A stretch of 46,014 bases of DNA. It comes from Rhizaria sp. SCN 62-66 (lineage: Eukaryota). Positions 17,914-41,862 of the stretch are shown piece after piece. The translations under genes and the position numbers were made by a program. The stretch spans positions 62,001 through 108,014 of the forward strand of contig MEDY01000048.1 of NCBI GenBank assembly GCA_001724265.1, read 5' to 3'. The notes beneath the pieces are model-generated. The model ran no database searches and had not been told where the DNA came from. It saw only the letters and a list, made by a program, of their open reading frames with translations. Every line of letters starts with the position of its first letter. Position 1 is the stretch's first letter.

Positions 17914-20900
17914 ATGGATCTCGGTCTCCCTCTTCAAGATCAGCACGCCTCCGCTGCCCCCGCAGCCCTCTCATCCCCCATCATTGCCCCCAACGCTTCC
18001 GGCAGCGGTGCTTTGAGCGCTGACTCTAGCAGTGGCAGCGGTTCGATGCCTCCGCTCTCCCCTCTGGCCGCCGCCGCCGCCGCTGCTGCTGCTGCCCCTA
18101 TGGTCGCCTCCCCGATCTCCGCCCCCGCCGCAGCGCCGGCGGCAGTTTCTGCTGCTGCAATGGACGGCCTCAACGTCCCCGCGCCCCTCATGGACGCTGA
18201 CGACGACAACGGCGGCTTATATTCCGCTCCCTCCGTCTCGGCCGCGACTGACAACTCATCGTTCATGTCAAGCGCTGATGTTGCTCCTGTTGCTGCAGCT
18301 GTGCCTGGGGCGGCTTCGCTTGCACTGGCGCCGCTGTCTCCGATCGCATCCGTCCCTGCTCCGCCCGTCGCCGCCGTCGCCGTCGCCCCTGCCGCCGCCC
18401 CCGCTGCGGCAAGTGAGCCTGCTCCTGCTCCCGGGGCGAGTGCCCCTGCGCCCGTCGCAGCCATCTCAGCCTCCGATGCCTCTGCTGCTCCTGCTCCTGC
18501 TTCGGTCTCAGCCCCGTCTGTCGTTATTGCCGCAGACTCTGACTCAGCCATCACCGCCGCCTCTTCAGCAACGACATCTGCCGACTTCACTGCCGCTGCC
18601 GCGGCTGCTGCGGAGGCTGCCGTGAACGCGACTCCCAGCGCTGCCCACCCCCACATGTCCGAGTCGGGACTCATGATCTCGGGCGTCTACCGCTACGCAC
18701 ACCCGCCTCACCTGCTCGTGCCCTCCACGTTCCCCTCCAAGGACCTGTTTTACACGCGCCGCAACGCCATCGAGCGCGCCGCCCGACTCCCCAAGGGCTA
18801 CCGTCTCTTGCCCACCGACCCTCATCACCCTCTGGGCGCAGCGGCCGCGAACCCGAAGGCCGTGGCGGCCCGCCCTCTGACCGCGTTCGGGGGCCCCGCC
18901 GCCGCTGCCGGCGCAGCCGGGTCTGCGGACGCCGCCGGCGCCGGCGCCCCGGGTGCTGCCGGGGCGGCCGGCGGGGTGTCGATGTCGACGCTCTCGGCGG
19001 CCATGGCCACGCCCACTGTGCAGGTACGCACTTAGACACTTAGATGTCTCCGCAATATGCCCGTGATCTCGAATTAATTGTATTTAATTAAATTTACTTC
19101 TTCACGATCTACTCACACCTTTTTCTTTAGAACAAACCACTCATATATCGCTCTAATATGTTGTATTTTGCGTACTATTGTGTACTTTTGACAGGCGCGC
19201 TCGTCCCGTGCCGGGCGCAACCCCGGCCGCACCTCGCTCTCGGGCTCTATCTCCATGTCTGCCTACTCCGAGGGCGCCGCGTCGCTCGACCCCGTTATGA
19301 CCAAGTGCGAGGTGATCCTGACGGAGCTCAACGACCAGCCGTACTGCCACGTGTTCTCAGCACCCGTGGATCCCCAACGCGATGGCGTGCCGACCTACTT
19401 CGACGTCATCAAAAAGCCCATGGATCTCGGCACCGTGCGTTCTCGTCTCATCACCGGAAAGTACGAAAACGTCGCCCGCTTTGCCGAAGACGTGCGCCAG
19501 GTCTTCGTCAACGCCACGACGTTTAACCCGCGGGAAAACTGGGTTCACGGCCTCGCAGTCAAACTCGCAGAGTTCTTCGAGAGTAAGCTCACTGCTGTCG
19601 AGGCATTCGCAGCGGAGCATGAGGCCGCCAAGGCCCGGCGCAAGGCCGCGCGCAAGTCAGGCGCTGGCGCTGGAGGCAGTTCCGGTACCGGTGGGCAGCG
19701 GAAGCGTGGGTACGGTGACAACGACGGCGACGACGACGACGATGACGACGACGACGGGGCGAGCGTCGCCTCGACCGGCACCGCCGGCCGCGCGAAGAAG
19801 CCGCGCCGTCCGTCGGCGGCGTCGGGTCGCAGCGGCCGCAGCAGCAACGCTGGTGGCGACGATGACGAGGACGGCGGCGCCAGCGACGCGACTGGCGCGG
19901 CTGGCGGTCCGATGATCAACGGCAGCATGATGCAGATGATGAACAACAACAACAACAACAGCAACACCGCCGGTGCCGGTGCCGGTGGTGCGGGCGATAT
20001 GACACAGATGCAGATGATGTGGCAAATGATGCAAATGCAGCAGATGCAGCAGCAGATGGCGATGTTGGCCGCGGGCGCTGGCGTCCCAGACGGCAAGGGC
20101 GGGAATAAGAAGCGCCAGAGCACCGCCGGCGGCGGTGGCAAGGGCGGCGCCAATGCTGCGAACAACATGATGATGAATCCGATGATGATGGGCATGGGTA
20201 TGATGAACCCCATGATGATGAACATGGGCAACATGGGTGGCAACATGATGAATCCCATGATGATGAACATGGGCATGGGGATGAACCCCATGATGATGGC
20301 CGGCGGTGGTCCCAATAACGCTGCTCAGGGCAACGGCGCGGTTTCCAGCAACAGCAACAGCAACAACAAGCGAGCCAGCGGTGTCGGCGTCGGCGGTGGC
20401 GGCGGCAGTAAGACCGGCGTCGGCGCTGCCCCCAGCTCTTCCCGCAAGCCCTCTGTCACCGCCTCCGCGCCCCACTCCGCCGGCGACGCCGACGCCGCGA
20501 TGCATCAGCAGCAACAGCACGCGCAGCAGCAGCAGCAGCATCAAGTCAACACTGCGCATACGCTCCGTGTCGACCAGCTCAAGAATGACATGCAGGGCCT
20601 GACTGGCGACGACCTCCCGGGCCTGGTCAGCACGCTTCAGCGCTACGACCCCAGTTGGCAGCCCACCGACGGCAACATCAGCCTCGACCTGAACGCGCTC
20701 GACGTTGTCGTCATCGACGCACTCGAATGCTACGTCGCCAAATGCCGACAGAAGCGGACGATCGCTCAGCAGCAGCAGTCGTCGGTGTTCCGCTCCCCGC
20801 ACTATGACGCGTCGGCGTCGCGTCTTGCGGGGCTGCATGGCACGCCTGTCGGCGTCGGGGTAGGTCTCGGTGCCATCGCCAGTCCGGGCAGCATGGGCGT

Positions 20901-20946
20901 CTCTGGCGGCGCGCCCCCGTCTGACTCGGACTCGGACTCGGACTAA
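17914..20946 (+). CDS. Bromodomain + extra-terminal (ET) domain protein, BET/GTE-like, ~953 aa. Exons 17914-19023, 19195-20946
   Basis: Bromodomain VFSAPVDPQRDGVPTYFDVIKKPMDLGTV...FVNATTFNP with the conserved Asn; ET-like segment QLKNDMQGLTGDDLPGLVSTLQ..NISLDLNALD..IDALECYV. A phase-0 GTACGC...CAG intron joins the exons in frame; stop TAA. Confidence 0.9.
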
Positions 20947-21877: not shown

Positions 21878-22500
21878 TTAGATTAGCGATTTTTCTTTGT
21901 GTGTGGCTTGATATATCTTATCACCGTCGTTCATAGTGCGAGCTTGGTTGTGGCCGTGCGCCACAGGGCTCGTCGTGCAATCACCCACAATGTCGACGAC
22001 AAGCTTGAGCAGCCTTGCTGCGCCGTCCTGTGCCACATCATTCTTTGCTGCCGCTTTCACGAGAGCGCCATAACCGCCCGCCTTCAGGAAATCCGCCAGG
22101 AGCCTGTTGCGCGGCCCAACACCCTCGGCCGCCACGCGGGATCCGGGCTTGTGTCACTCGCATGAGTTGCAACGCGAGACACACCGAGGACGGTAGTCGC
22201 ATGTACTTACTGTTAACAGTGTCGACAAGCAGCAGCGTGAAGTACCGCAGCGCTCCGGACTCGAGCAACGCAAACGCCCTTCCAAGCCTGGCTTTTTTGC
22301 TGACTTTAGAAAGAGAACCGCCCAATGTTGCAATCATAATCTTCGACAAGTGTTCCGCAAACAAACACACCGTGTACTTGTTGGCTATAGTCATCACGGG
22401 GAGACGCGCGACAACTGTCAGCAACACATTTGCCTCAAGAACTCGTGGCACGAGAGCGGGGCGAGCTGACCATATTGCATAGCAGTGACACGAGCTTCAC
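21878..22500 (-). pseudogene. Possible frameshifted remnant of a helical/ARM-repeat gene
   Basis: A coding-like island in AT-rich intergenic DNA. Amphipathic ARM-like segments (VKLVSLLCNMVS / LVPRVLEANVL..LLESGALRYFTLLL / FLKAGGYGALVKAA..AARLLKLV) lie in successive different frames, with no convincing start or splice sites. Confidence 0.3.
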
Positions 22501-22830
22501 ACACAAAGTGACAGTATTAAGAAGTCAGACATATTTAAGCTTTATTGGGCATATACGCGTGCATACTAAATACATTGTCAAACTAATGTAACCGTAAAAA
22601 AAATCTCAAGCTATATAGTTATAACTTCCCATCAAAACAAAGCAACCAAGGTCACGATCACAGAACTCATGACACACAACAACGGATGATGAGTGCGTGG
22701 CAGCGAGTAAGAGCACATGCGAGATGTTGGCAAGACACGTGATTCGCCCGTACTTGTGTTCGTTTAAGTTTTTGGGGCCCCGCATTCACCACATAACCTT
22801 GTGAACAATAATCGATTCTCACTCAGTCAC

Positions 22831-24894
22831 TCACTCGCCATTATCAGCATTATCCTCCCCTTGCTGTGCCTGCAGCGCCAGCAGCGCTTGCTTCTTCCTC
22901 CGCGCACGCTCCCTGGCCCTCGCCTTGACCTCCTCGGACGCCTCCCTCAGGCGGTCATACTCCCTTTTCTTCTGCACGTACTCAGGATCTTTGTACCGCT
23001 CAGCATTTTCCTGCCGCTTCCGCTCCTTGACCGCGGGATCCAGCGTGCGCTGCATGTCGTAAGCGCGCTATTTCGCCCGCACCACGGGATCCAGCCGCCG
23101 CAGCCGCGCCTTTTCGTTCAGCAGCAGTCGGCGTTGTTCGCGCTCTGCAGGGCTCATCTTGTTCAGAGCCTTGGCCGAGTTGATCCGGTCGAGCTCCCGG
23201 CGGCGGTCCAGGCGGGCTATCTCATGGGGCGACATATCTTCACGGCGGCGGCAGCGGCGCCGGACGACGATAGGGTCCCCACTGGCGGCCGCGGCGGCCG
23301 CGGCGGCGGCCTCAGCGGCAGCAACAGCGGCGGCGGCCCTCTCGGCGACGGCAGCAGCAGCAGCAGCAGCAGGGGTGACGGCGGCAGAAGCAGGGGCGAC
23401 GGCAGTCACATCGCCGCTCACGGCGCCGGCGGCAGGGCTAGCAGCGGTGACGGCGCCGGCAGCCGAGACAACTGCGGTCGAGCAAACGCCGTTGTTCCTT
23501 CTGTCGCCCATATTGTTCTTGTTGTTACTGTTGTTGTTGCGGCGACGGGTGCGAGGCTCGGAGTCGGAGTCAGAATCGCTTTCATCAGAGGAGAAGGATG
23601 ACTCGTCGCAGTCTGAGCCGCGGAAATCAGAGTCGGAGTCGGAGGTAGAGAGAGACTTAGACTTTGGTTTTGACCGTGACTTTGCTTTAGACTTGCTCGT
23701 CTTGCTCTTGCTCTTGCTCTCGTCATTGCTCTTGTCACTGTCACTGCTGCTGCTGCCGCTGCTGCCGCTGCTACGCGAGGTAAAAGACTCAGAATCACGC
23801 ACGTACTTGACCGGAGACCGCGTTTCCCGAGCACGCGTCCTGGTACCCGTGGAGGTACCCGTGGGGGAACCAGTAAGGGAACATGTGAGGGAATCAGTGG
23901 GGGTATTCGCACTCGGACTGGCCCTCGCGTTAGGACTCGAGTTCACACTGGCGCTGGCGCTGGCGCTGGCGCTAGCGCTGATGCTGGTGCTGGTGCTGGC
24001 GGCGGCGGCGACTGTGTGTGTGCTGGTGTGAGCGTAGGACGGAGTCTGCCTTCGAGCTTCCTCGACTGCAGTCGGAGTTGCCGCTGCCGCTGCTGCCGCT
24101 GCTGCCGCTGCTGCTACTGCTGCTACTGCTGTACTGTGAGCCTTTGCTGCAGAGGCAGAGCCAGAGCCAAGCGCTGGCCGCAGCTATGACCGGAGAGGTG
24201 ACGCAGACGCAGACTCTACGCCTAACTAGGCGGGATAGCCAGTGGAAATGTTGTCCTCAGAGTCGCCGTGGCAGCCTGCGTAATTGTCACCGACGGTAAT
24301 GTCAGTGTCGAAGTTAGAGTCAGACTGAGTCATATCATCATCATCATCATCATCATCGTCATCATCATCAGAGTCGGTCTCAGAGTCAAAGTCGGAGCAC
24401 ATCATGCTGATGAAAATGTCGCTGTTGAGTATGGTACGATTCGCGAGAGAGCTCGCCTCCATAAGAGCGTTGCTCCTGAGGCTGGCGCTGCTAGAGAGGA
24501 GCAGTGCGCGCGCAAGCCGGTCGCTGAAGCTCTCTTTGGTGTGATGAGAATCACTCGAGCTAAGAGCAAGCGGGTACTGCTGTTGCTGTTGCTTTGAGCT
24601 GTTGCTCGGCGTCTTGCGAGGGCGCTTCGCATCAGCGCCGGGAGCAGCAGAGGCCGCGGCTGATGCGGTCACAGCTTTGACGCCAGCACGACGCCTCTTG
24701 ATCTAGATGTCGGATAAATGCTATGAAAACGTATTAAAATTGTGTGAAATAATACAAAGTGTGAGTATGCTAAGTAGAATTGTTGATCAGTGTTGTCATT
24801 AATGCAATGAAAGTGAACGAACGATAGCGGGCGAACAATAGTGTAGGCATAAAAGAGTTGGAGGTTGCCGAAAAATAAAACGTACCTGCGACAT
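22831..24894 (-). CDS. Unknown ~626 aa basic/acidic protein with C-terminal helical repeats; 3 in-frame TAG codons. Exons 24894-24886, 24702-22831
   Basis: ATG TCG CAG|GTACGT...TAG|ATC AAG AGG gives MSQIKRRR. The track ORFs 24226-24672, 23068-23946 and 22831-23055 share one frame and are separated only by TAG (24226-28, 24184-86, 23068-70). The gene ends in TGA. Confidence 0.75.
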
Positions 24895-26212
24895 ATTGAT
24901 AGCACAGAAACGTAGAACAAAAATACGAGTATATTTCTTTTGCGTGAGATTCGCGCGGCTTGCGCTCTTGTTGCGAAACCAGAGCGGTTAGGGAAGCAAC
25001 TGAGACCGAGACCAAGGTATGGGGGAGGGCACGAGCCGCCTCAAGGCGTGTAGCGCTGTACAAAAGTGTTTACAGAGGTCTAAACTAAGCCTGCTAATTT
25101 TAGCAAGTAAGAGATCGTGAACGATTGACGCGCACGCGTTCGGGGTGAGATTTGATATCAGGGGAGAGCACCGCATATCGTGAATGCACCGTAGAGTCAA
25201 GCGCTCAGAAGCGCACGCATTTCCATGACATGTTCACGCATATTTCCGTCAGATCAAATGTCATTATAAGTTACTTTTAGAATATAACATTTGAAACGAT
25301 ATATATCAACGTGGTCCTTTAGAAGGTCGATTTAGAGCGCACACATTCCATTTTTCTTCGCGATAGGTCGAAGACTGGTGGGCGCTCTCTACCACGAATC
25401 TTGGCAAGAAGTCGCAAAACAACACCCAAAGAGTTGTGATCTTTGATTAGTCAGCTGTATTTCAATTATTATATTTAAATACTATGTTTGTAATAAATAA
25501 ATTGTGTTTGTCCTTTAACTCGGACATTAGCCTGGTATATCTATCTCGATATGCCTGATGTTCGCACCACGGCAGTAGCTCACCATCAAGTATACAGCGC
25601 AAAACACAAGCGCCAGTTTGACAACATAAGCTTAAAAATGTGGGTGGGTGTGATACAACATGTAGAGCAAGTAGATACGCAAAGCCAGCGCTCCTGAGCC
25701 GCGTTTTCCGGCTGAGCTTCGTGGCAGTTGACTAACATATCATGATATCTCAGCTTTGGAACATAAAATTGTTAAGTGGGTATCATCTCTTGCGTTGATT
25801 TACTAAAATATGTTGTTATTAAGTGTCGTGATACTTTAATAATGAGAACGAGCGTTCGCCGATCCATATTTTCACAGTGTAACACTTTTTCAATCGAAGT
25901 CGCAACGGTCAGAGCCTTAACTCTGAAGGATTAGTTTAGGATTAGTTTAGGCGTAGTATTTGCATGCGCTGCTGGCTCCCTACACACTACAGGACGACGA
26001 CAGAGATATGACGTGATGATAATCGATGGGATATATGTATGAATGATACACAGTTTCATTAAACTGCTTGATAAACAAATAAATCAGCGAGTTGGTTAAT
26101 CACATCTGGCCTGACTCTCATAAACAACGAAAAGCTATCAAATACTGTTTTGCTGCTCAGCCAAGCTTAGCTAGCGTCCTCTGTCTTGAGTCAACACAGC
26201 GTCACTTCAGTT

Positions 26213-27422
26213 TCACTTCACTGGCGACGGAATGATCGCAATCGCGAGCAGCACTCCGGCCACACAGAGCCCAAATGACCGTGCGGCAGCCCACGTGATC
26301 GGTCCAGTCATGTGTTCATCGCCGTCGTGACTGTGTCCATGTCCTCCCAGGTGACTACGCCGGCGGTGACCGTGAGTCGCACGCGTACCCTAACCGGTAC
26401 TCATGACACCAGTGCCCGTGACACCAGTACTCGTGGTGTTGTTCGTGCGTTTCCTGTGACGCCGGGGCACCTACATCCCCCGCTCCCGCAGCTCCGCGTT
26501 GCGCTTACGGCGCTCATCGTGGTCCACGTCGCTGTCTTCACTCCCCTCACTGCTGCTTTCGCCGCCGTTGTCGTCGTTGCCGTTGCCGTCGTCAGCGCAG
26601 ACTGAGGCGTCGTGCGTCACAGAGGAGTCGTCACTCTTCACACAGTCACTCTTACTCTTCTTCTCCTGACCGCCACTCTGGTCAGCAGCAGAGCCAGCGC
26701 TGTCCGTTATGTCCGCGACAGAAACAGGGATATCTGCGATCAAAAACGCAAGCACAGCCGCGATCACAGTGAGCAGCAGCCTTCGGTACCACGGCGCCGG
26801 CGGCGGGGGCAGCCGGCCGTACGCCCGGTCGACATTTTCGCGAACCTGCGCGTCGCCCATCCACGGGCACGGCGCGCCGAGCGCGGCGGCGACTTGGACA
26901 GCGCTGGCGACAGCCGTCTCCAGGAGCGGGACGCCGCAGACGGAGTAGGAGCCGACGAACCACAGGGCATGTGTTCCTTGCAGCCGCCAGAGCTCTTGCG
27001 TCGCGCGCAGCGACGCCCACGTCACCACGGGCCGCTCGAACGCCGAGACTGCGAGCGTGTGTTGCGGCGCTGGCGCGACAAGGGGGTTCCAGGTCTGGAA
27101 GATGTCGACGTCGGTGCGGAGCCCGTGCTGCACGCGGTTCATCCAAATGCTCGCCATGCCTTCGCGCTCGAGCGCCGCGATCTGGGCCGCGCGCGCGGGG
27201 GTGAGAACGCCGTCGAGGTTGCGCGGAGGTGCGCTCGCAGAGTTGTGGTCGTTATTGTTGTTGTTAGAGCTGTTATTAGCGCTGTCGGAGTCAGCGATGG
27301 GGGTGGGCAGAGGCGCCTGGGGAGAGCCGGATCCGGCGGAAAAGGGCAGCTGCATCGTCACTTCAAGCTTCAACGCTCCCAGAGCACCCGAGCTCACACA
27401 ACCACCAGCGTCAGAGTTGGCG

Positions 27423-27459
<37 letters not shown>

Positions 27460-29371
27460 AGTTGTGGGCGTTAGTTGCGCTGTTCTGGTCGCTAGTGAAA
27501 GACTGCATCTCCTGGAGCGAGTCTGGCAGGATGAAGTTCACCGAGCGCCAGTCGGCCCTCTTGGCGGGCATCAGGGCCGGGTCCGTGTGAAGCACCAAGC
27601 GCGACGACTCGTAGGGAATGCCACGCAGGGCGCGGTCGAGCGCGGCGCGGTCTGCGTCGTCGCACTTGCCTGTCAACACGTTCGCGGTGCAGCCAGCAGC
27701 GTCACTCACGCTCGCACTGGAACGAGAGCTAGAGGATGATAGTGTTGATGACGCGGAGTCAGGGGTCTTGTTGTCGCCGTTCTTACTGGCGTTAAAGTGG
27801 CCGCCGGCAAGGATGGCAGCGGACTGGTTGGCCTGTGTCGCAAAGACAACGTGGTCAAACGTATCCACGGCGCCCGTCGAGTCCGTCAACGTCACACGCC
27901 ACTTCTTCTCGTGCGTACCCTCACGAGTACCCACGGGTTCCGTGTCGACCCGCGTGATCCTGCGTCCCAGCCGCACGTCACTGCAGCGGCGCACCAGTTT
28001 ATGCACGATGTCCTGGGCCCCGCCGCGGGCACGCCTGACCCCACGCCAGGAACGCGTGACCAAGTACTGCACGACGACCCAAGCCGGGTAGTCGGCGGCG
28101 GCGCGGGAGGAGCACGTGCAGATCGAGGCCATAGTGGGAAGCATGAAGCGGTAGATGAAAGAGGTTGAGTACCGTTGCTGCAGTAAATATTCGAGCAGAG
28201 TAGGACCCTCAACGCCTTCGATCTCAGCAGGAGACTTGCCATTCGCACCCGCACTCGCACTCGCGGCCTTAGAGCTTGTGCTGTTGTTGCTGTTTTTGTC
28301 GTTGTTGGCGACAAGGGCCGACGCGTGGCGGAGACGGTCGGCGGAGGACAGCGTGCCATCGCAGAGATGCTTGTGGGATTCGTTGAGGAAACGCATCAAA
28401 TCACGCAGAATCACCCAGAACTCACCACTCACAGGGCCGTCAGTCACCTGCTGCTGTCGCGCACTTGCTGAGCTAGAGCTGGAGTTGGAGCTGGAGCTGG
28501 CGTTAGGGCTAGAGCGAGAGTTGTGAGAGTGTGCTTTGGGGTTGTATTTAGTCGAAAGTCCGAGGAACGCACGAGTACGCGTGACTGCTGCGGCGGCCGC
28601 CTGTGTGGCAAGCGCGACAGGCGACATGTAGGGCAGCGAAAACGAGCCCAGGAGCAGGTTGCGGTAGGCAAACAGTGTGGCGCCAGAGAGACAGGAGAAG
28701 GACGACTCGTAGTTCTCGGCCTAAAATGATACAACCAACAAATTCAAAGTGTACATGTGAGTTTTTTACAGTAAAGCCAAGGAATCACTGTGTGACAAAT
28801 ATTTAATTGTGCGGATAAATTAGAATTAACTCGGGAGTCACAAATCACATGAAGATATCTTGAGTGCAATTAGACGTACCTGGTACTTGACGCCGACACG
28901 GTCGTACAGCGCAGTCAAATGCGGGTAGTACGACTCCGTGAAAACACGCAGCGGCACGTCAACACGCACACGCGCGTCTAGTCCACTGCAAGAGCTACTG
29001 TTGGCTGCGTTGGGGATGTTTGCTGCGGCCGCGGCGGCGGCAGAGGGCGGGCCGTTAAGGACAGGCTCGTTGTCAGTGTTAGCATCGCCAGTGAGCGAAA
29101 AGGCACCAGAAGCAAAGTTATTGCCCAGCGTGATGCCGTTCGAGTCCATGCCGAGGTGCGAGGCGGCCTCGTAGACGACGACGTCGTGCTACAAAGGAGA
29201 CTCGGCGAGAAGGTAGGCCGCCGTGAGACCTGCGATGCCGGAGCCGACGACGGCGATACGCTGCCGCGAGTGCACGCGCTGCGGCAGGAACGCCGCCGGC
29301 TGCTGCTGCTGCGGCGGCGGCAGCGGCGGCTGCACGGAGGACGCAGCGGGCGCAGATGCAGGGGTGGACAT
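26213..29371 (-). CDS. COG2907-like predicted NAD/FAD-binding oxidoreductase (amine-oxidase fold) with C-terminal hydrophobic anchors, ~999 aa; 3 in-frame TAG codons. Exons 29371-28880, 28720-26213
   Basis: Rossmann motif RIAVVGSGIAGLTAAYLL..(TAG)HDVVVYEA..HLG. Further motifs VDVPLRVFTESYYPHLTALY, FDHVVFATQANQ, LVLHTDPALMP..W, LQG..LWFVGSY..GVPLLETAVASA. TAGs at 29189-91, 26471-73 and 26390-92; terminal TGA at 26213-15. Confidence 0.88.
27422..27457. repeat. (GTT)12 microsatellite encoding poly-Asn on the minus strand
   Basis: Directly visible; corresponds to the N12 tract in the oxidoreductase. Confidence 0.9.
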
Positions 29372-30070
29372 GCGGCTGCGGGGGCTGCTGCGGTGGGGTG
29401 AGGGCGGAGTGCGGCGGAGATGGGGAAGTGAGAAGTGAGAGGCGGCCGTGAGAGGTGTTCGGCAAGGGTTTAGGAGGCATAAAAAAAACAGATATGTGAT
29501 AAATATGTCATGTTTAATAAATTATAAAATGTTGAAAATAGCCCTGAAGTACATATATCGCGTACGACGGACAGTACATGGCTAGATTGACGACGCTAAG
29601 TTGAGGGCGAAAAGCTCGCTGCGTGGTTGTTGACCATCTCTCGATCTGCTCGTGGACCGAAAAATCGAGAGCCCAGTCTGCGGACGGACGGACACATATT
29701 GCATTAATGTCCGCCACCCGCAATCGTCTCGCAGCGCGAATATACGTCGTTAATAACTCTTTTAGCGCTTTGCTATGAAACTTCACGACGTAAAACTTAC
29801 ACTCCAGATTACGCATATTTCCATTCCCTCCGTGTCCTTCGCAGCCCTTCTGGTAAGTTCGCCGACTTCGAACTCAGCAAAGAGTCCAGAACTCCACTTC
29901 CCTTCTCACTCGGTTCCGTCCCCCGCGGTCCTGCAACCAGCTCACCTCTTTAGAACCCTTTCCCGCGTTTCCCCCCGCGCCAACCCCAGTCGCTGATCTG
30001 CAGCGCAGCGTAAGCACAGTCAGCTCACCGCCTCAGCAAGCAAGTCCACAACACACGCAGCCTCAGCACG

Positions 30071-31921
30071 ATGTCGTTCCTCTCCCGGGCCCTGCAAGAC
30101 AGGCTCGACGAATTCAACGGCCGGCCCACCCTGCGTGAGCAGATGCGCGATGCACCCTCAAGGGCCGATGCGTTTTTGGTGCAGGTTAGGAACATGAAGC
30201 GCTCGTGCGTCAAGCGCGGTCTCGGCGACTTTGCGTCCGCCTTTTCCATGGGTCTCGTCGGTGGTTTTGCGCTCCATTTCCTCAAGACAGTCTACTTCTC
30301 GCCCCCCGGCATGGCGCGCTGGATTGAGGGCCTCCGCATGGGCTTTAAGAACGCCCCCAAGACGGGTTTTGCCTTCGGTCTCTGGGGTGGCATCTTTTCC
30401 ATCTCCGAGTGTTACCTCAAGAGGTGGCGTGGCGGCAAAAAGGACGCCCTGACGTCCATCGTTGCCGGTGCTTTCACCGGTGGCGTGCTGGCGTTCCGCG
30501 AGAACTCCAACGGCATCATGCGCGGCGCTCTCATTGGTGGCATGCTGCTCGGTGTCATCGAGGGCATCATCGGCGTCGTGACCTTCTTCGCCAAGGACGA
30601 TAAGGACGCCGAGGTTGTCCCTGTCAAGCTCATCGACGATGACAAAAAGGATGACATCGCCGAAGCCATCTACTTCTACCGTATGTACCGCTCCATGATC
30701 GAAAAGGGCAAAGACCACATTCAAGGCGCCGACAAGCAACGCGCCTTCATGGAAGTCTCCGCTGAGAAGAACGCTGAACGCGCCACAGCTGGCGCGGCTC
30801 GTATCCGCGACTCGATCAACACACTGCGCCAGAACGGCACCCCGTCGACGCTGCCGCCGCCACGCATCGCGCAGATCCTCAACGAGCGCCCTGGCTACGG
30901 CACCACGGCCAGCAGCGCGGCGTTTGATGTCGCCAATGACAACGCGCATCGCCGCGCGCTGGACCAGGCCCGCGAGGAGCACAAGGACTCGCTCAAGCTC
31001 ATGGGCTTCACCTTCGGCGCGCGCCCCGGCACGGCGCACGGCGACGCGTCGAAGAAGGAACGTCCCGACCCGTAGCAGGCGGCCGCGGCGCGCGAGGCCG
31101 CGGGCATCAAGGGCAAGATTATGAGCGCGTTCGGCACTGGCTACCGCGAGCAGTTCTACGACCCTGAGGCCGCGACCGACGAGCTGATGCGCGACGGCGT
31201 GACGCTCATGAATGACTACGACGAAGCCTACCGCGCGCACATCGCCGCGGGCGGTTCCGCCGATCTCGACCGCATGGAGGAGGAGATCTTCGAGCGTGAG
31301 ATGGCGCGCAGCGAAGGCGGCGAGGCCGCTGTGGCGCTGATCGAAGACGCGCTCAAGCGCCGCGAGCAGATGCGGCTGGGCGCGCGGCCGATGGCGCACG
31401 AGCCGTTGCTCGACGGCCCGCTGCCGAGTACCGGCGGGCACGAGTCGGCGTTCCTGGCCGCGCAGGGCAAGGGTTCCACGGCGCCGGGTGGGATCACGGG
31501 CTTCACGCGGGACCCCGTGACCGGGGAGATTACGAGTCTGACCGTAGACCGGCGCGCTGACGGCGGCGAAGACGCGCTGACTGAGGAGGCGATGACGGCG
31601 GCGGCCGGGCGCGCCCTGGAGAAGATTGCTGTGCTGGACTGGGGACGACGCAGGCAGCAACTCGTGCGGGACACGCAGCGTGAGCAGCGCCGCATCGAGC
31701 GCGAGTACCTCGGTAAGGACGACGACGACGGCGATGACGATGACGGCGATGATGAAGGTGGTGTTGACGGCTATGAGGCGAGTCGGAGCGAGGCTGGCGG
31801 CAGTCGGTTCACAGACTTCACCAAGAGCGGCGGCTACACTGCGGCCGAGAGGACGGCGATGCGCGCCAAGCGCAGGGAAGTGCTCGAGAACAAGAGCAAG
31901 AACAGCGGTAGCTGGTGGTGA
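30071..31921 (+). CDS. TIM17: Mitochondrial inner-membrane translocase Tim17-family protein with a long C-terminal extension, 616 aa; 1 in-frame TAG (31073-75); intronless
   Basis: The Tim17 domain is SC..R..GDFASAFSMGLVGG...APKTGFAFGLWGGIFSISEC...RGGKKDALTSIVAGAFTGGVLAFR...IGGMLLGVIEG. ORFs 30071-31075 and 31121-31921 are in the same frame, linked by TAG plus 15 sense codons (QAAAAREAAGIKGKI). Stop TGA. Confidence 0.85.
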
Positions 31922-32785
31922 ATGATCTATCTTTATGAGTGCTTGTTCACAATATCTAAGTTAGAAATCAGAAGGCCGTAGGTAAAATCGGGACAGCTGT
32001 TGTAGCTTTGTTCTGTGTTTCTTTTCTGTGTTTGTGGTTTGTTTACGCTGTTCATGTTTACACTCCGAGCGAAGAGGAAATGAGAGAATAAACAAGTTTA
32101 TATTTATTGTAAGTGATCACCTGATTACATACTTCGGTAAGCATCAGCATAACTGGTCAAACACACGCACGCACACAATTCTTGATCTGTCAGTATTTCT
32201 TCGTATTATTTATCGCCGTCTTGCTATATAATATTTTTTTCTCAAATTTCCACTCATCCCCTCCAATTCCTCAGCGCACATTGTACCATACTATGAGCTA
32301 CACTTCTAAACTATCATACGCGATCGATCTCTCTGTCTGCAAGTCGTCAATCATCGTCAATCAATATCCGACGTGTCAAGCACGACTTCCTAGATTTGTG
32401 TACTATCTACACGGCCAATATAGTATTGGCTGACTGAACGAATGGCCCATGGCTTAAGAGTTACCGCTACTTTCTGTTGCAGATGGCAATACTGTCAGTT
32501 CTTACGCGTTGCGTCATTTGACATCACGCCACGAACGAGCGACCTGGTTTGCCTTCACTTGTTTTTGCTTTGTTTTTGAATGGTTTTCGCTAGTCTTGCT
32601 TCCCAATGCAGCTAAATACAGAATGTTTAAATTCTACTGCGCGCGATGAAACTATCTACAAGTGAGATTGATCCATATAAATAATACAAGCACGACGACC
32701 AGATACACCATGTCGAATGAAATGGAACGTGTTCTATTGTAGTCAAGGGTTGCTAGATAAAATCCGTTTCTTAGTACATGTACAG

Positions 32786-35700
32786 TTATTCGCAAAATAA
32801 ATCGATGTTAAACGTGTCCGCCAACACTTCGAGCGCATGCCCCCACCCTTGCTCCCCCAACCGATACGGCGCCGGATCCGTTGCTGCCCCGGTGCTCGCA
32901 ACGCTCTCAGCATCGCGCTCAGCCTCCGCTGCGGTCGCGGGTGCCGCCGCCACCCCCGCCCTGGCAAGCGCAGCGGCACTGTCCGCGCTCACTGGACACG
33001 TGAACGGCGCGAGCGCTACCGCACTCTCGACCGGCATAGAGGCGTTCGCGCTGGCGCTGACGGTGGGCTCTAATCGGGCAGCAAGGCGAGATACGTAGGG
33101 TTGCAGCGGAGAAGCGGCGCCAGCGCGCAGTGCAGGCTCGAGCCAGTCTTCGAGAGCAGCGGCAGCGCGGACAGCAGGGAGACTGTGCGCACTCGTGGGG
33201 ACACGTGTGCGTGTGTGCGCGAGTGCGCGGGCGAGAAAGCGCGTGTTCTCTGGGAATAGCGGTGTCAGCATCACTCGGCGACCGTTACTTTTGTGCGCTG
33301 CCAGCATCTCAACTGACACTGATAACGGCACCGGGGCTGTTTTGAGGTTGTCATAGGTGATATTGCGCGGGGTCACCAAATAATTCATGTGCCTGGGTAA
33401 GTACCGCGGCTGCGCGTCAAACCACGAACCCATCGTATGACTGTTGCTGTCACCATTGCAGCTCTTCCTGAGATCGCTACTTGTACTGTCGTCATCACCA
33501 CCAAGCACGGCGCTGTGCCGTGCAGCTGCAAGCGCGATAGCGCAGCCCAGCCAGTCAAGCGGCACTGCACTGAGCTTAAACAGCATCGGCACACTGCTCT
33601 CAATCACATAATTCTGCGATTCGCGCGAGTTGCCGCTGTTGCTGCTCGGCGCCCAGTGCAAGTCCCTGCGTGGCAGCGGCGGCGCGAGACCGGTGCGTAG
33701 CGTCTCTGCGAGCGCTCGGTGCGGCAAATCAAGCGCAATCGCGCGCGGCCGCAGCGCCCGCGGGCCACGGTCGGCCAGTGCAGTCAGCACAGGCAGGCCT
33801 GTGTCAGGGTCGCGGCGGAAAGTTAAGCCGCCCCGAGCTACAGAAATGTGACCCGGGCTCAGCACCAGCAGGGGCAGAGCGTAGGCACGCGCGCAGGCAA
33901 CAAGCGCGCGCTCGCCAAGTAGCTTTGTTGCTGCATATCCACTCAGCGCAGACGCAGCAGTCGTTGAGACATGCGCAAAATTTGGCACATCATCAGACTG
34001 AAGTGCGCTGTGCCGATCGCAGTGCGTTGGTAACGCGTACGGCGCTAATGACGGGGACGAGGGATCAACGGTGTCAGTCGTCGATATGTGATACGTACAC
34101 GCCGCACAAGCGATTTCACTCGATACCTCGCTCCCACTCACACTGGCAGTCGCAGTTCCGGTCGCAGCCGCTGTTGTCGGTTGACTGCGCAGTGCGCGTG
34201 CTGAGGCGGCGAGCGCGGCAACCGTGACGCACGCCGCGGCGTTCGCAGCCCTCAGCTCAGGGTCCCAGGCCGGCGCAGCGTGGTCAACCGACGCCGCGCA
34301 ATGAAACACGGCCGTTGTGACCGCGGCCAGAGCGCGCCACTGACTGCGCGGGAGACCGAACCAGGGACGGGAGACGTCGGCGGCCACGGCGGAGACGTGG
34401 GCGGTAAAAGCGCGGCGGCAGACCCACCAACCACACGCGCCTGCGTCCGACTCAACACTGTTTTTCCACTCCGCTCTTGCGTTGGCGTCAGTGTGAGTTA
34501 AGATGCAATCGGTCGGTGCCATAAAGCGCGCTTTGACGAGCGCGCTTTCAAGCCTCGACAAAGCGGCGTGGCTGTAAACAAGCTTGTCGTTGTCACCATT
34601 GTCGTTGTCGCCGCTGCCATTGCCGCTACACCGCACAAGGGCTGTGACAGCCAGCGGCGCGTTCGTAACAGCAGCGAGTCGCAACAGAGCGCCCAGCAGT
34701 GCACCACCGACGGAGCCAGTGACCCCGGTCAGAACAGCGCGCGGTGAGGGACAGCACAACCACGGTGCGAGAGGGCCGGAGGATACTGTGCTCAAGACAA
34801 TGTCAACAGGCTTGTTGATGTTCAGAGCTTGCAGTTCTGCGAAAGAAAGGACAGATGCGAGGAGTGCCGTGAGCGGCGGCGGCGTCCACTGTTGGCAGCA
34901 CGGGAAAGGAAACGGCATCACTAACGCGTCGTTGTCAACGACTGACGCGCCGTTGTCAACGACATCACTCGCGGTAGTGGTAGTCGCATTGCCTGTGCCA
35001 GTGACGGGCGAGTTCATAGAAATGATGGCATCGTGAGTGTTATCTGGTACGGCTGCGTCACTCGCAAAAGAAGAGAAAGCTGCAGTGCCAGCATTGGTCT
35101 CGCCACAGCTCTCTCGACTTTGTGACCCTCGCTGAACACGGTCATCACCCCAGTATCCCAGCCTCCAGAGACACTGCAGCGACGCCTCAGGTGCGGACAT
35201 CACCCGCGCCACCGCGCCCGAGACTGCTGCAACTTCACGAGCGGTGCGCGTGAGTCCTGCGCTCAGGCGCTCAGCACTCGTGATTACAGCGCGTAGGCGC
35301 TGCAGCGCAAACGAGTCCACGCCCAAAGCGCGTAGTGGCGTGCGAGGTTCACGCAACAGCAGCTCAGCGGGACAGCCCGTCGCCTCCTCAGCAGTAGCCG
35401 CAAATAGGGCAAACGGCTCATCGTCGCGATGTAGCTTCACAGTCGTTGCGGCTCCGCCGTGAGCAAGGAGAGGCCAATGCGCAGCAGCAAGTGCAGCTAC
35501 GGTGGCGGGCGCGCGCGCGAGTTTCCCGCTGCCGGTCAGCGGCGGCAGCGCCAGCGTGGCCGTGACCGACAAAGGCAGCATGCGCAGCGCAGCGGGCAGC
35601 GCGTGCGACACACGGGGGGCAGCCACGGGATGCGACAGCGCGCACGCTAGCCGTGCCGGGGGCAGCATGAGACACGAATCAGCTGCGCGCGTTGCAGTCA

Positions 35701-38700
35701 CGCCGCTGTTAATGACATTGCTTGCGCTGTCGCTGCCGCCGGTATTTGGGGCGGAAGCGGCAGTGAGTGCGGTTGCGGCGTCCGTGGCGGCAGCGCGCTG
35801 AAGCAGCAGCGACTGCAGCGGCCATGTTGGTTGCGACGACTCGCTATCAAGCTCTGCCAGCGCAGCCCCAACCGCATCGAGAGTGACTGTCGCATTTTCG
35901 TCGCTCTCAGTGATACTTGAACCAGCGCAAAAAGCGTTGAGATTGCGGCTTGTGTGCTGAAGCCAGATCTGCAAGTCATTGAGCGCACGCTCAGCAGCGC
36001 GGCGCCACTCAGGAGATAGCCACAGCGCCAGCACCAGCCTCTGCCCGTCGCTCGCCTCGCCACGCATGCCGCTGTGGTCGCTGCTTCGACTACCGCCGTC
36101 ACTGCGGGGCGCGAGCAGCAGGGCCGCAGCCGGTGCGGGAACAACCGCCGCGGCGACAGCGGCTTCGGCGGCGTCAACAGCGACAAACTCGCCCGCGCGC
36201 GTGCGCACTGCGGCGGATATGCGGCCTAAGATGATGAGAGGGCGACGGCCGTCGGGGAAAGCAGCGCCAACACGCGCGATGTCACCGGTCGCATGCCAAC
36301 CAGCCCACTTGTCACAAGCAACAGCAGAGTCGTCAACGCAAGAGTCTGTAGTGTCTGCAGCGTTTCTACTGAAATCAGTGTTGCTTTCACTGGTCTTCGT
36401 CGAGTCAAGACAAAGATATCCAGCGCTGCGGCCACGCGAGCGCAGCATCAATTCGCCCACATCGCCCTCGCGCTCCAAAACCGCACTCACTAAAGCGGCA
36501 ACCGCATTAGAGTCACTCTGCGCAGACAGAGGCCGCAGCCGCGCCTCGGTTGCGCGCGCGCCGCCGTCAGGGTCATTCCCGCCCAGCAGCAGCCCGCGGT
36601 CGCCGCTGCTGACGGTGCCGGTCTCGGTTGTGCCGAAGCTCTCCCGCAGCGGCACCGCGGCGGCGGCCCACGCGCGGCGCGCATCGCCGCTGCCGAGAAC
36701 CAGGGACAGCGCGGCGCGCAGGGTGGCGGGCACGGGCGCGGAGCCCGTGGCGGCCTCAGACAGACGCATGCCAAGGGCGCGGCGGGCAAGAAGGCGGGCG
36801 CGCGCACAAGCCAGAGTCAGCGCGGCGGCCGCGTTCGCACCGCGGTACACGGCACGATCACTGACGGCGCGATGAGCTCGGTTTGCCGCGTGATTGGCTC
36901 CGTTGGTGGTGTGGCTGGTGGTGTCGAGCTGCTGCTGCTGCAAAGCGAAGGTGCGCGCGCGGTGAAGCAAGTCTTCCCAGATACGCGGCACTGCAAAAAG
37001 AGACGACGGAGCAAGAGCGGCACAGTGCGCCCACAAACTCAACCCGACGAGACCACCGGTCGACGCAGTCGCACTGTCACTCAGCACACCGCCGTGGACA
37101 CCCGGACTGCCGTGGTCAACATGAGCCCTCGTGCTGCTGCAACTGGCAGCCGCATCGGGGCAGTATAGCGCAACGCGGCCGCCGCGCGCAAGTGCGCGAA
37201 ACAATGCTGACTGTCCATTGTAGTGCGACAGAGGATCGTGCAGTAGACACACCGGAGGCGGGGCGCTCGCGTCGTCCGGCTCCAGACCGCTGTCGCCGTT
37301 CAGCACAGCCACATTCCCCACAGCGGAGTCATCACCGCCCACGGCGACGCTGTTATTCCACGTATTCTTGCATAAATGCGGCGCAACGGACCAAAGGAAG
37401 CCCGCGCGCGTGACCATGACGCCGCGCGGCGCGCTGCCGGAGGTGCCGGATGTCGGCAGCACGGCGTGCAACGACTCGGCCGCAGTGTTGATGCGCGACG
37501 CGGGGTCGCCAGATGACTCTGTGGCAGCGGCGATGCTGGCCACTGAAGCAGTCGTTAGACCTGAGGCTGCAACATTTGATGTAGCTGCTGCCAACTTGGA
37601 TGAAAGAAGAGAGCGCATTGAGAGCACAGTGACGCCACGTGAACTCGCTAGCACATGCACTGCGTTGACAGTGCAAGCGTTATTGTTATGCGTGGCGCAT
37701 GCATCGTGGTCTTCGGAGTCCACATCAAGCAGCAATACCACTCGGGGCAACACGAAGACAGCATTATCGTCGCTGCAACGATTCACACTGCGTTTGCGAA
37801 AGCTGCTATCGTAGCAGTGACAGCGCAGCAGCCGCAGCGCAGCGCCGGCAGGCAGCGCAACTGCAGACACAGCGCCAGTCAGCGTCAAAGAGCGTAGATA
37901 CGCAAGCTCGGGCGAGTGCGGGCATTTGCAACCACGAGCCACGGTCGGCGACTGCGACTGCGCTTGACACCGTGACTGGGACTGAGACTGCGATTGTGAT
38001 TGAACTGCCTGCGGGCTGCAGCAAGGAGGATGTGACTGTGAGAGCGTTGCATCCCACGGCACCCAGTGCGGCACAAAGCACGTCTCAGGAAGTCTGGCCG
38101 CGCCAGGAAGTTTGGCCGCGCCATAAAGTTTGGCCGCATTTGGCGACAGTGTTGGCGGCGAGAGCGACATAGCGACCGTGAGCAGCGCAAGCGCAGGTGA
38201 CGCAGGCGCACACACTGCAACACAGTGCACTTGATCGCGTGCAGTCGGCTGCGCTGCAGCTGTAGAGGGCGTATCATTGCGCGCTTCAGAGCCCGTCATA
38301 CATTGCGTATCGTGCGCCTTCGCGTTAGTGTCCGTGGTGGCAGCTGCGATCACAGCTGTGGTCACAGCTGAGGTCGCGAGTGACTGCGAGAGGGCACTGG
38401 CGAACGACTGGGACAGCGTGGTCGCGAGTGCAAGAACCTCAGCGTAAGACAGCCAGGCAAAGAGCCTGTTCGCAGAGGGCTGCATGGGCAACAGCGACTG
38501 CGGCCGCGAATGTAACTGTGACGACGACACAGTCACATCACGGCCAGCGCCAACGCCGGCGGCTGCGGACGCATCAAGAATGTCCATCGAAGCACTGCTT
38601 GTATCGGGTTTGACATAGGATACATCGCACATCTCACCGGACACTGTGTCGGCCTCTAACTCCTCTAGTGTGCAATTGAGATCGAAAAACGCCCGCATCG

Positions 38701-39823
38701 CAGCCGGCAGCCACCGCGGCGGCGCCTCACGTCCACTCGCACTCGCGCTCGCACACGTTGCGGCACAGATGCTTGCCATGGCGCGATCGCCGGCAAGAAC
38801 ACGCGCGCTACCGGTGGCGCAGGCAGCGTCCCTAACGCCGACGCCGGCCTCGGCGGCACGGACAGCAGAGCTGCGCGCGCAGAGAGCAGAGCCGCGCGCG
38901 CAGCCAGCACTGGCACGGGCCGGGGACGGCACAAGCGCCGCAGCGAGCGCGGGCGCCGTGGCCGCCCTCGGCAGCGGGCGCCAGTGCGCGCCGCAGTCCC
39001 ACGCGCCGCCGGAGCTGTCTTGGCCGACTCCAGCATCGCGCTCCGGCGTACGGTCACCCTGCTACTGCTACTGCTGTTGCTGCTGTTGTTGTTGTCGTTG
39101 TTGTTGCTGTGGTTGTAAATCGCGGTCACTTGCGCTTGGTGTATTGGTGCGGGCCAGAGCACGCAGAGTGGCCATTGCCGCGCGGTCCCCGGCGCCTAGG
39201 CACGGCCTGCCCGGGTGCAGCGCGGCAGCAGCCGCAAACGCAGCGCCAGCCGAGAACGCCGCGAGCTACGAAGCGGGCTAAGATGAAGCAGCCGCCGGCT
39301 CCAGTGGCTCTGGCGAGCAGAGGTGGCCGCGATGCGGCCGCGCGGCGGCGCAGGGCCGGCACAGCCACACGCGCGCGGGCGGAGCGAGCGTCGCAACACT
39401 GGCGCCGAACGCTGGGTCCCACGGGTCGCAGCGCGCGCGCGGCACGAGCAGCGGCGCACGCGCGCCGGAGCAGTCCCAGCAAACGAGCGCGTGGTGGTGC
39501 AGCGGCGCGGCGCAGTCGTGGCAGGGCGCGGTGGCGGCGCGCGCGGCGTGCGCGGCGGCCAAGTCCGTGGCGAGCGCGCCCGCGGCCTCGCGCTGCTTCA
39601 TGGCAGTGTACTCAGCGGCGGTCAGACCCATCATGCGGAGCACTTTCGCGGTCGGCAGCGGGGCGGCGGCGTCCGCAGCTGTTGTCGAGGACGCTGTTGT
39701 CGCAAGCGCTGTTGTCGCCATTAATGTAGCTGTAGAATCCGCGGGTATGGCAGCAGGCGTCGATTCACCATCGTCAAGGTCGAGGCGATGGGCTCCAGCG
39801 CCGGGGCGCTGCCGGGAGAACAT
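32786..39823 (-). CDS. Carboxylic-acid-reductase-like NRPS-type enzyme (adenylation, carrier, thioester reductase) with an N-terminal Cys/His finger, ~2345 aa; 4 in-frame TAG codons; apparently intronless
   Basis: A-domain motifs PTSGTSGSAPRGV, PLSH, AVPRIWE, TGSAP, FGTTETG, GELMLRS, WHATGDI, GR...AGEFV and LTGSGKLAR. Carrier motif LGVDS. Reductase motifs LTGVTGSVG, DVSRPWFGL, HCAASV and GYAATK. ORF 39278-39823 joins ORF 32786-38932 in frame through TAGs at 39278, 39266, 39068 and 39062. Stop TAA. Confidence 0.85.
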
Positions 39824-40281
39824 GCTGAAGATGCCTACCTAGGCGCTGTGTAGATGAGGACGTGATTCTAGAGGGGTATACGAAATTATAAGGTTTATTA
39901 TTAAACATCCGGTGAGAAAAGTTGTAAATAACATAGTATGCATCGTTATACTCTTGCGGACGGATTACACGGACTTCTGCCCATCTGTCTATTCAAGCTA
40001 CATTCTTTCTCTCCCCTCGAGTCAGTGATTTTTTTAGGTACAGGACGAACGGGTGGACTACATGACACGTGAAAATAGCTTCAATTGTGATGTATTCTCA
40101 GCGCCTACATGATAAATATACTGGCGTAGTGCTTTCCATCGTTCATTGCGACAACGCGTGCGCATGCGATTTCTTTTATACGATCTGATCAAAAACTAAA
40201 AACTACAACAAACAACAATAATCTCTCTCCCTCAACTCTCAGCTATCTCTGCATGCTTCACTTCACGAAAGTGCGCGATAC

Positions 40282-41238
40282 TTAGCAGCTGACGATGCCG
40301 GTGTTCTGGTCCTGCATGTCTCCCTCAAGCGACACGACGTCCTTAAAGTGCGTGATGCGCGCAACACGGAAGCGCACAGCCGTGCCGACCTGCAGCGTCT
40401 CGTTGGTTGCCGCATTGACCCACCCGGCGCCGTCGTCCGAGAACTCAAACTCGGCGGGCAGCCCGGCCGCGGCCTTGATCGCCGCGTTGAAAGTGCCGTT
40501 GACGAGGAGACCGACGTGGTCGGCCTCGACCTTGTTGATCGTGCCGGTCACGTACGCGCCCACGGCAGGGCGGAACACCAGCAGACGGGCCTAAACAGGA
40601 AACGAGGGACGAAAGAACAAACAAAAGAAAAAGAGGTATAGATGTGAGTAGTTGGAGTTGAAAATTTCACATAGGATCGCAATATAAGTGTTAATATAAA
40701 ACGTCGTGCAATCTTAACACACACGTATCATCAAAGTCTATTGCCATGTTTATGTGTTGTCGGGTGCAAAGTGTACCTGGATGTTGAAGTGGACGTGAGG
40801 GCGGTCGAAGAAGACCTCGGAGTGAGTGTCGAGGATGTGAAGCTTATCAAACGCCATCACAACGCCGCCGACCTGCGGATTGTACCTGAACAAGGAACAC
40901 GCGAGTGCAACAGAGCGAGATTAGAGTGATCAGGGGTGAGCAATGCGAAACGAGGAGTTAGTATGGCAAGGCGTACATGGAGACAATACTTATGTGGGTC
41001 GCGAAGAAAACGCACGGCCAGAGTTTCCACGCGTAGAGGTACATCATATCAAAGGCTCGAAGAAAGCTGCACATATTGCAATGATCTAGCGCTTGTTTTG
41101 TGAGGGAGTGTTGGAGGAGACGTACTTCATGAGCATCGACGTGAGAAGAGCCTGGACACCCTCTGTGACGTTGCCGAGACGCGAGGGCAGCAGGTGCACC
41201 TTGGTCTCAATAATAACGTTGTGGAAACAGTCAGCCAT
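40282..41238 (-). CDS. RPA43: RNA polymerase I subunit RPA43 (RPB7/RPC25 family), ~176 aa. Exons 41238-41126, 40885-40777, 40590-40282
   Basis: The spliced product VHLLPSRLGNVTEGVQALLTSMLMK|YNPQVGGVVMAF..DRPHVHFNIQ|ARLLVFRPAVG..GTINKVEADHVGLLVNGTFNAAI matches the RPA43 SHS2 and OB domains. Stop TAA; a further small 3' exon cannot be excluded. Confidence 0.85.
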
Positions 41239-41862
41239 TGCGGAAACGGAGTGAAGCGGGGCGCGAAAGCGACGGGAGCTGCACAAGCGCGGAGGCAAAA
41301 AGGCGAGGTGGGTGAGGGACGGGAGCGAGGAGCGGCAGCGCGGCAAGAAAAGCGGCGCAGACTGGTTTTAAAGCAGCGGGGTGGCTACGACAGACAACTC
41401 AGTAGACGGTCGACTGTGCAGCAGAAAGAAATCAGTTAAGCAGGGGCGACTCGGGTGCGATGCCGAACGTCGGAGCGATGAGACCTACGGCGGCAAAGGC
41501 GATACAGCGGAAGTGAATATAACGGCATGAAAACGACAGAACGCAATGTGGCCACAACATATATTAAATCATTAACGCTACTATGTGGCCACTAAAATTG
41601 AAACCTAAACACGATCATTTACCCCTATTACCAGCCAGTATGCGTTCTTGGACCGACCGAGCGCTGCCGAGCCTGCTGCTTTGACGGTCGGCCGAGCTGG
41701 CTAGCCGATAAGGCTGACATGGCTTAAGGAGGCGTCCAACGTCTATTGTTGACCGGACTGGCTCTCGCTCAAACGTCCGCTAATTCGAAAGAGGTGCAGA
41801 TATAGTCAGTGTCCTGCATCTTTCTCGCGTATATTTAACGGATATCTCCGTATCCGCATTGC

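Follow-up and report, generated by a model that had tools for sequence, protein, structure and literature searches.

We report that the organism represented by contig MEDY01000048.1 (NCBI assembly GCA_001724265.1, Rhizaria sp. SCN 62-66) probably reads UAG as an amino acid, with UAA and UGA still terminating translation. The stretch analyzed, called the window here, comprises the 46,014 nt from position 62,001 to position 108,014 of this contig, and all coordinates below are counted from its first letter. The case is carried by a minus-strand gene at 29371-26213, predicted to encode a COG2907/amine-oxidase-like flavoprotein (hereafter the oxidoreductase), whose reading frame is crossed by three TAG codons before it ends at TGA. 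A preliminary description made from the letters alone had pointed to a TAG in the motif for flavin adenine dinucleotide (FAD) binding; the model of the gene with three TAGs and one intron is absent from that description and was found in the present follow-up.

Three TAG codons in an oxidoreductase gene

The gene model is as follows, where P0001 is the best homologue found (see below).

28880-29371 (-): exon 1, opening with the ATG at 29371, 164 codons; Rossmann FAD/NAD (nicotinamide adenine dinucleotide) motif; 71% identity to P0001
29189-29191 (-): first in-frame TAG, codon 61, in the loop that joins the GxGxxG helix to strand beta-2; Gly in P0001
28721-28879 (-): predicted spliceosomal intron of 159 nt, GT-AG type (GTACGT...TTTTAG), phase 0, with an in-frame TGA, three TAA and a TAG inside
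26216-28720 (-): exon 2, 835 codons; amine-oxidase-like body, low-complexity inserts and a C-terminal hydrophobic tail
26471-26473 (-): second in-frame TAG, spliced codon 914; His in P0001, with homology going on past the TAG
26390-26392 (-): third in-frame TAG, codon 941, in a low-complexity stretch preceding the conserved tail
26213-26215 (-): terminator TGA; this protein and P0001 stop at the same aligned residue

The first TAG appears on the plus strand as CTA at 29189-29191 and is, with the ATG at 29371 as codon 1, the 61st of 999 codons (29191-29189). It is flanked by L60 and H62 in a translated context, matching that given in the preliminary description, that runs from RIAVVGSG to SHLG, with the GxGxxG residues G43-x-G45-x-x-G48 at 29245-29228 and Glu68 at 29170-29168. 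Termination here would give a product of 60 amino acids (aa) from a gene of 999 codons, in agreement with the earlier remark that the TAG would leave a 60-aa fragment of an enzyme of about 1000 aa. From the ATG, the frame runs into a cluster of stops (one TGA, three TAA and one TAG) within 28840-28721; below the intron the same frame is open to the TAG at 26473, then to that at 26392, and then to the TGA at 26215. With the intron removed the coding length is 164 + 835 = 999 codons, across which there is no frameshift, no TAA and no TGA. The gene closes with tandem in-frame stops (TGA AAC TGA, 26207-26215).

The intron begins 310 nt downstream of the codon-61 TAG, which is itself uninvolved. 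It is AT-rich, with CAG/GTACGT at its 28879 boundary and TTTTAG at 28721, and the model is supported by the continuity of P0001 across the proposed junction (...EYQ runs straight into AENYESSF). We also considered an intron at codon 61, where TTGTAG resembles an acceptor, and rejected it: P0001 is collinear residue for residue with a single Gly opposite the TAG, and such an intron would excise the GxGxxG helix. The statement of the preliminary description that no intron lies at this TAG is thereby borne out.

The protein is, by its sequence, an ordinary flavoprotein of the COG2907 type with lineage-specific inserts, a predicted FAD-binding oxidoreductase. The Pfam family NAD_binding_8 matches exon 1 residues 41-83, spanning the TAG (E 4.8e-14; 52.8 bits against a cut-off of 21.9), a match at an E value too low to be chance, and Amino_oxidase matches exon 2 (23.6 bits, cut-off 19.8). 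Exon 1 has six matches among PDB sequences at E <= 0.01, and the four alignments shown all cross the TAG and reach the strand with Glu at its end. For exon 1, an AlphaFold2 model made from an 18-row alignment has a mean predicted local distance difference test score (pLDDT) of 66, with blocks of 82-90 over residues 41-70; it lays out a strand (38-42), a helix (46-56), a loop (57-62) and a strand (63-67), making residue 61 the last loop residue before beta-2. The model and the PDB alignments thus agree with the earlier placement of the TAG within the beta-alpha-beta loop. Residues G43, G45, G48 and E68 are invariant in all 18 aligned sequences. The window protein shares with COG2907 proteins the N-terminal GxGxxG...E, the combination of NAD_binding_8 with Amino_oxidase, and both bacterial and eukaryotic homologues; in the ESM Atlas, exon 2 falls among clusters named 'NAD/FAD-binding protein', which are bacterial or plant. 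It differs in being about twice as long as the bacterial members (421-452 aa), the extra length coming from the low-complexity inserts and the C-terminal hydrophobic tail, both of which are shared with P0001.

The homology extends through all three TAGs. A search with exon 2, among 8000 scored candidates, found 18 homologues, the best being P0001 (913 aa, source name 'predicted NAD/FAD-binding protein'; E 8.2e-205, query cover 100%), with an overall identity of 52% to the oxidoreductase. Exon 1 and P0001 are 71% identical and collinear; around the first TAG, 32 of the 35 residues upstream and 28 of the 33 downstream are identical (manual count on the alignment), so that both flanks appear to be under constraint, and long identical blocks follow the TAG. 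A BLASTP alignment of exon 2, its TAGs written as X, to P0001 has 429 of 866 positions identical and runs from the first exon 2 residue to the last residue of both proteins. The second TAG (26473) aligns to a His of P0001, and the hydrophobic tail common to the two proteins lies downstream of both the second and the third TAG. Because P0001 is collinear across all three, to a common C-terminus, we conclude that the gene is translated through them; a restart internal to the gene, downstream of the first TAG, would lose the cofactor motif. This conservation on both sides of codon 61, and the homology through two more TAGs to the shared C-terminus, support the claim of the preliminary description that the TAG must be decoded.

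A possible objection is that the oxidoreductase is a pseudogene lately inactivated by nonsense mutations. If the standard code applies, the gene does have three premature stops, and in window genes a share of 0.57-0.60 of the single-step paths to a stop lead to TAG, so that all three being TAG has p ~0.2. Against this stand the 999 codons free of frameshift, TAA and TGA, the end-to-end alignment with P0001, in which the tail is conserved after the second and third TAGs, the ~85-91% identity to P0001 on both sides of the first, and the occurrence of the same TAG-only pattern in other window genes. We consider recent inactivation very unlikely.

Further relatives were sought beyond the homologue set. 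A scan of metagenomes gave 35 loci, all of 26-45% identity; among the five inspected, two look bacterial, two resemble distant eukaryotic homologues and one is without the Rossmann motif. Scans of genome contigs (by protein and by DNA pattern) and of viral contigs gave no match, and none of these scans, that of the metagenomes included, recovered the window organism or the P0001 contig.

TAG in other window genes and the choice of terminators

In-frame TAGs are present in 4 of 10 gene models. Those outside the oxidoreductase are as follows.

31073-31075 (+): in-frame TAG in a Tim17-like gene (30071-31921, ends in TGA); coding score 0.45 upstream and 0.60 downstream
22831-24462 (-): acidic Ser-/Ala-rich low-complexity gene with TAGs at 24228, 24186 and 23070, ends in TGA; the three TAGs are plausible, without homology support
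39062-39841 (-): five TAGs in a probable N-terminal extension of a nonribosomal peptide synthetase (NRPS)-like reductase gene (32786-39943, ends in TAA); coding probable

The TAG at 31073 connects the open reading frame (ORF) that bears the Tim17 domain with an in-frame ORF of 266 codons. Between this TAG and the next ATG, 14 of 15 codons have G or C at the third position (manual count); introns and intergenic DNA of the window are AT-rich. The Tim17-family protein read in this way (30071-31921, plus strand) has an extension of ~280 aa after the in-frame TAG, and the gene found no match among 8000 candidates of 338-1078 aa. The product of 22831-24462 has a basic C-terminus with DP-x-V-basic repeats, and no Pfam family matched it. 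The NRPS-like gene has 2091-2385 codons (32786-39943, minus strand), with NAD_binding_4 (thioester-reductase-like) as its sole Pfam match; its 39062-39841 segment is GC-rich, with high third-position GC, but its coding score is mixed.

For scoring, we trained a codon model on five genes free of TAG issues and applied it to the 40 in-frame codons downstream of each site. Downstream of TAG the score is 0.87 at 29191, 0.60 at 31073 and 0.20 at 26473, compared with values between -0.54 and +0.14 after the ten terminators, all of them TAA or TGA. The 9000 codons of nine gene models include 12 TAG, no TAA and no TGA, a contrast that is partly by construction since the models could pass TAG. The terminators of ten genes are six TAA, four TGA and no TAG, and among the TGA ends that of the oxidoreductase is backed by the homologue P0001.

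These counts bear on a second objection, that UAG is still a stop and that some ribosomes pass it at particular sites by near-cognate tRNAs, as leaky or programmed read-through. In-frame TAG is confined to four of the ten gene models, at 12 per ~9000 codons; C follows TAG at 8 of the 11 sites read, and C after a stop codon weakens termination; and no tRNA(CUA) was found in the window. Yet the oxidoreductase would need three such passes, one of them within the cofactor-binding fold, and inefficient passage would leave almost no full-length protein. Moreover, none of the seven genes without in-frame TAG ends in TAG (six end in TAA and one in TGA). The hexamer CARYYA directly after UAG is the programmed read-through motif of the tobacco mosaic virus type; it follows neither the first TAG of the oxidoreductase (CACGAC) nor the TAG of the Tim17-like gene (CAGGCG). 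We therefore regard read-through as unlikely, if the most probable of the rival explanations.

A further rival gives UAG two context-dependent meanings: a sense codon within genes, and a terminator close to transcript 3' ends. The TAG of the Tim17-like gene can be read either way, because the downstream half is an orphan. Against a dual meaning, no gene end in the window requires TAG as a stop, and the apparent terminal TAGs all resolved to introns or to frames that are still coding-like. It is a highly improbable account of the window.

Independent sequencing runs

The stretch is present in eight listed runs from five studies dating from 2015 to 2025. They are metagenomes of bioreactors, wastewater, activated sludge and fuel cells, and one of the runs may be the source of the window itself. 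We compared contigs of four runs, from three studies, with positions 22500-40500. Over these 18 kb the four runs differ from the window at 11 listed places, none at a TAG. Record 3 of run X2 (DNA, from another study) covers 26024-27405 with no difference, including the second and third TAGs of the oxidoreductase and its TGA stop; record 18 of X6 and record 25 of X8 cover the second TAG, unchanged. Record 12 of the polyA-RNA run X5 (30982-31388) spans the Tim17-like TAG with no difference, although polyA-RNA contigs might stem from DNA carry-over in the library. In the bin 29111-29711 there is depth in X5, X6 and X2 and none in X8, with depth also at 29102. The codon-61 TAG is thus uncontradicted in the independent runs, without direct confirmation.

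An error of assembly or sequencing, or RNA editing, at the codon-61 base has one point in its favor: none of the contig pieces listed for the independent runs lies over positions 29189-29191. The absence of any differing letter at any TAG in four runs from three studies argues the other way, as do the unchanged second TAG (X2, X6, X8), the unchanged third TAG (X2) and the unchanged Tim17-like TAG in the polyA-RNA contig; and a single error would leave two further TAGs of the same gene unexplained. Error or editing has only a slight chance of being the explanation.

The amino acid inserted at UAG

If UAG is sense, the residue that it encodes can be approached at two alignable positions, namely the column of the first TAG and the His of P0001 at the second. 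Reading the homologue column at the first TAG had been proposed in the preliminary description; in 17 homologues it reads GKDNARRSSTQKRKRQK, with no hydrophobic residue (0/17). Mean BLOSUM62 scores for this column are 1.47 for K, 1.29 for R, 0.82 for Q, 0.41 for both N and S, 0.35 for E and -2.18 for L. From these alignments the encoded residue is probably polar, the column fits Gln, Lys, Arg or Ser, and Leu, the residue used in the rhizarian exLh (see below), appears disfavored. The earlier suggestion that the loop would accept a polar residue, for instance Gln, is compatible with this column; Gln itself is a candidate, and P0001 has Gly at this position.

Two other genes add hints. In 22831-24462, an alignment by eye puts one TAG opposite the Lys of two adjacent repeats. 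In the probably coding extension of the NRPS-like gene, two of the five TAGs lie inside a CAA/CAG run (CAG CAG TAG CAG TAG CAG), the pattern expected from synonymous C-to-T changes if TAG encodes Gln. We favor Gln as the leading candidate and give it about an even chance of being the residue.

Comparison with known codes

The nuclear code of Rhizaria sp. exLh (Sainouroidea) has UAG as Leu and UAA and UGA as stops, with terminators counted as UAA in 56 of 71 genes and UGA in 15 of 71, and with UAG, 384 times in 71 genes, falling on conserved Leu (PMC5304391). The window is like exLh in that UAG alone appears to be sense, the gene ends as modelled are only UAA or UGA, and in-frame UAGs occur in conserved genes. 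It is unlike exLh in two respects: the UAGs of exLh stand on conserved Leu, whereas the column in the window has no hydrophobic residue among 17 and Leu scores near the bottom; and UAG is much rarer in the window, at most 12 in 9000 codons against 384 in 71 genes.

In Iotanema spirale (Fornicata) and Protocruzia tuzeti, UAG is Gln and UAA is still a stop (PMC5304391; PMC11687900). This is the same type of code, and both the polar column and the TAGs in the CAA/CAG run would allow Gln; the GC-rich multi-gene contig and the introns of ~160 nt in the window suggest no particular tie to either organism. In Scotinosphaera (Ulvophyceae), TAG is Ser and TAA and TGA are stops (PMC8271138), again a TAG-only reassignment, and Ser is compatible with the column in the window (mean BLOSUM62 0.41). 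The BET-like protein of the window has its nearest Atlas clusters in a haptophyte (score 0.87) and a chlorophyte (score 0.83), a weak lead only; in contrast, no green-algal or plastid-related gene was recognized in the window.

Among ciliates, UAG is Leu or Gln in phyllopharyngeans (PMC11687900), and PL0344 has UAA as Lys and UAG as Glu (PMC10553269). These resemble the window in that UAG has been reassigned independently of UAA, with tRNA(CUA) as the mechanism in two genomes (PMC11687900). The window differs from them as a 46-kb contig with more than 10 genes, a GC content of ~58-60% and introns of 159-171 nt. We take this contig architecture to be unlike ciliate macronuclear DNA. Codes with UAR (UAA and UAG) as Gln are found in many ciliates, in Dasycladales, Cladophorales and Trentepohliales, and in Hexamita, Streblomastix and Amoeboaphelidium (PMC11687900). 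They share with the window a sense UAG and differ from it in that TAA ends 6 of 10 window genes; since it does so, and since the coding score falls after TAA, we conclude that TAA is not reassigned here.

UAG as sense with UAA as stop is known, in these sources, from few lineages: a rhizarian, Iotanema, Scotinosphaera, Protocruzia, some phyllopharyngeans and one other ciliate (PMC5304391, PMC11687900, PMC8271138). The probable UAG-only code of the window is a further case of this known, rare type. In a full-text search of the literature, we found no such code for activated-sludge protists or amoebae in the main texts. Each new case probes how far UAG and UAA are mechanistically separable, through tRNA(CUA) and the specificity of eRF1; if the present one is true, one more lineage would be known to have the two codons decoupled in meaning, and it is accessible in engineered ecosystems.

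Proposed explanation and points against it

We suggest that the window derives from the nuclear genome of a eukaryote of wastewater and bioreactor communities, uncultured, GC-rich and poor in introns. Ribosomes translating the oxidoreductase would pass its three TAGs (codons 61, 914 and 941) and terminate at the TGA. In described cases, decoding is by a tRNA with anticodon CUA, which is unable to read UAA, together with a release factor that ignores UAG (PMC11687900); by analogy, a dedicated tRNA(CUA) unable to read UAA and an eRF1 that no longer recognizes UAG may act here. The fuller proposal, that this is an undescribed non-ciliate eukaryote, met again with little change in the metagenomes of all five studies, with an independently evolved code in which UAG alone encodes Gln or another polar residue and UAA and UGA are stops, seems to us evenly balanced between being right and being wrong.

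Several observations weigh against a sense UAG or against parts of this proposal. First, the gene of P0001 itself has no TAG, and its residues at the two alignable TAG positions are Gly and His, neither of them Gln. Second, the 46-kb window has no tRNA gene; Rfam matches in the window are likewise zero. Third, the independent runs have no listed contig piece over 29189-29191, nor any differing letter reported there, and the splice joint of the intron 28879-28721 is not listed in their RNA contigs. Fourth, in an exhaustive HMMER search of 1.84 billion representative proteins for the Tim17-like gene, the C-terminal half matched, among the best 150 of 616 hits, only the window's own fragment, and the TAG at 31073 might be a genuine stop with a second gene right behind it. 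Fifth, the absence of TAG among ten terminators is partly circular, the TGA ends of three genes having been set by reading through TAG, and ten genes are few. Sixth, 4 of the 12 TAGs are well supported (three by homology and one by coding score), the evidence for coding being weaker for the other eight, in the two low-complexity genes (three and five); and all TAG and terminator counts come from 46 kb.

The reassignment of UAG has a practical side. Gene prediction under the standard or bacterial code breaks genes of this organism at TAG: in public protein sets the Tim17-like gene appears in two pieces (334 and 266 aa), and an Atlas record of the oxidoreductase begins only at exon 2 residue 32. 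Such splitting would leave the proteome of the organism systematically mis-annotated in wastewater metagenomes.

Introns and other genes of the window

Five TAGs were considered as sense codons and rejected, being read as intron acceptors (40593, 28723, 16187, 14717 and 6680). The P0001 alignment supports this role for 28723; for the other four, changes of frame and pyrimidine-rich contexts point to it. Two more, at 19033 and 42502, were rejected as terminal stops and lie inside introns with GTACGC or GTACGT donors, whose removal joins the adjacent ORFs in frame.

The introns at 28721-28879 (minus strand), 19024-19194 (plus) and 42469-42628 (plus) are much alike. All are AT-rich and in phase 0, with lengths of 159-171 nt; the donor, GTACGT or GTACGC, comes immediately after a codon whose last base is G, and the acceptor is YAG. 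Recognizing them merges 17914-19023 with 19195-20946 in the BET-like gene, and 41863-42468 with 42629-45106 in a gene with a PH domain.

No homologues of g8930 were found. A type-B carboxylesterase gene at 13854-16184 (minus strand; COesterase, E 5.9e-75 for the first exon) has at least two introns and no in-frame TAG, and ends in TGA. A gene for an RPA43-like subunit of RNA polymerase I (40282-41300, minus strand; OB domain, E 5e-12) is split by introns and ends in TAA; the TAG at 40593 lies within it and looks like an intron acceptor.

In the NRPS-like gene, runs X6 and X8, which come from one sample, have five close differences from the window (38678, 38831, 38832, 38839 and 38840) that do not occur in X2. 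They look like strain variation in a population that was otherwise near-invariant from 2015 to 2025.

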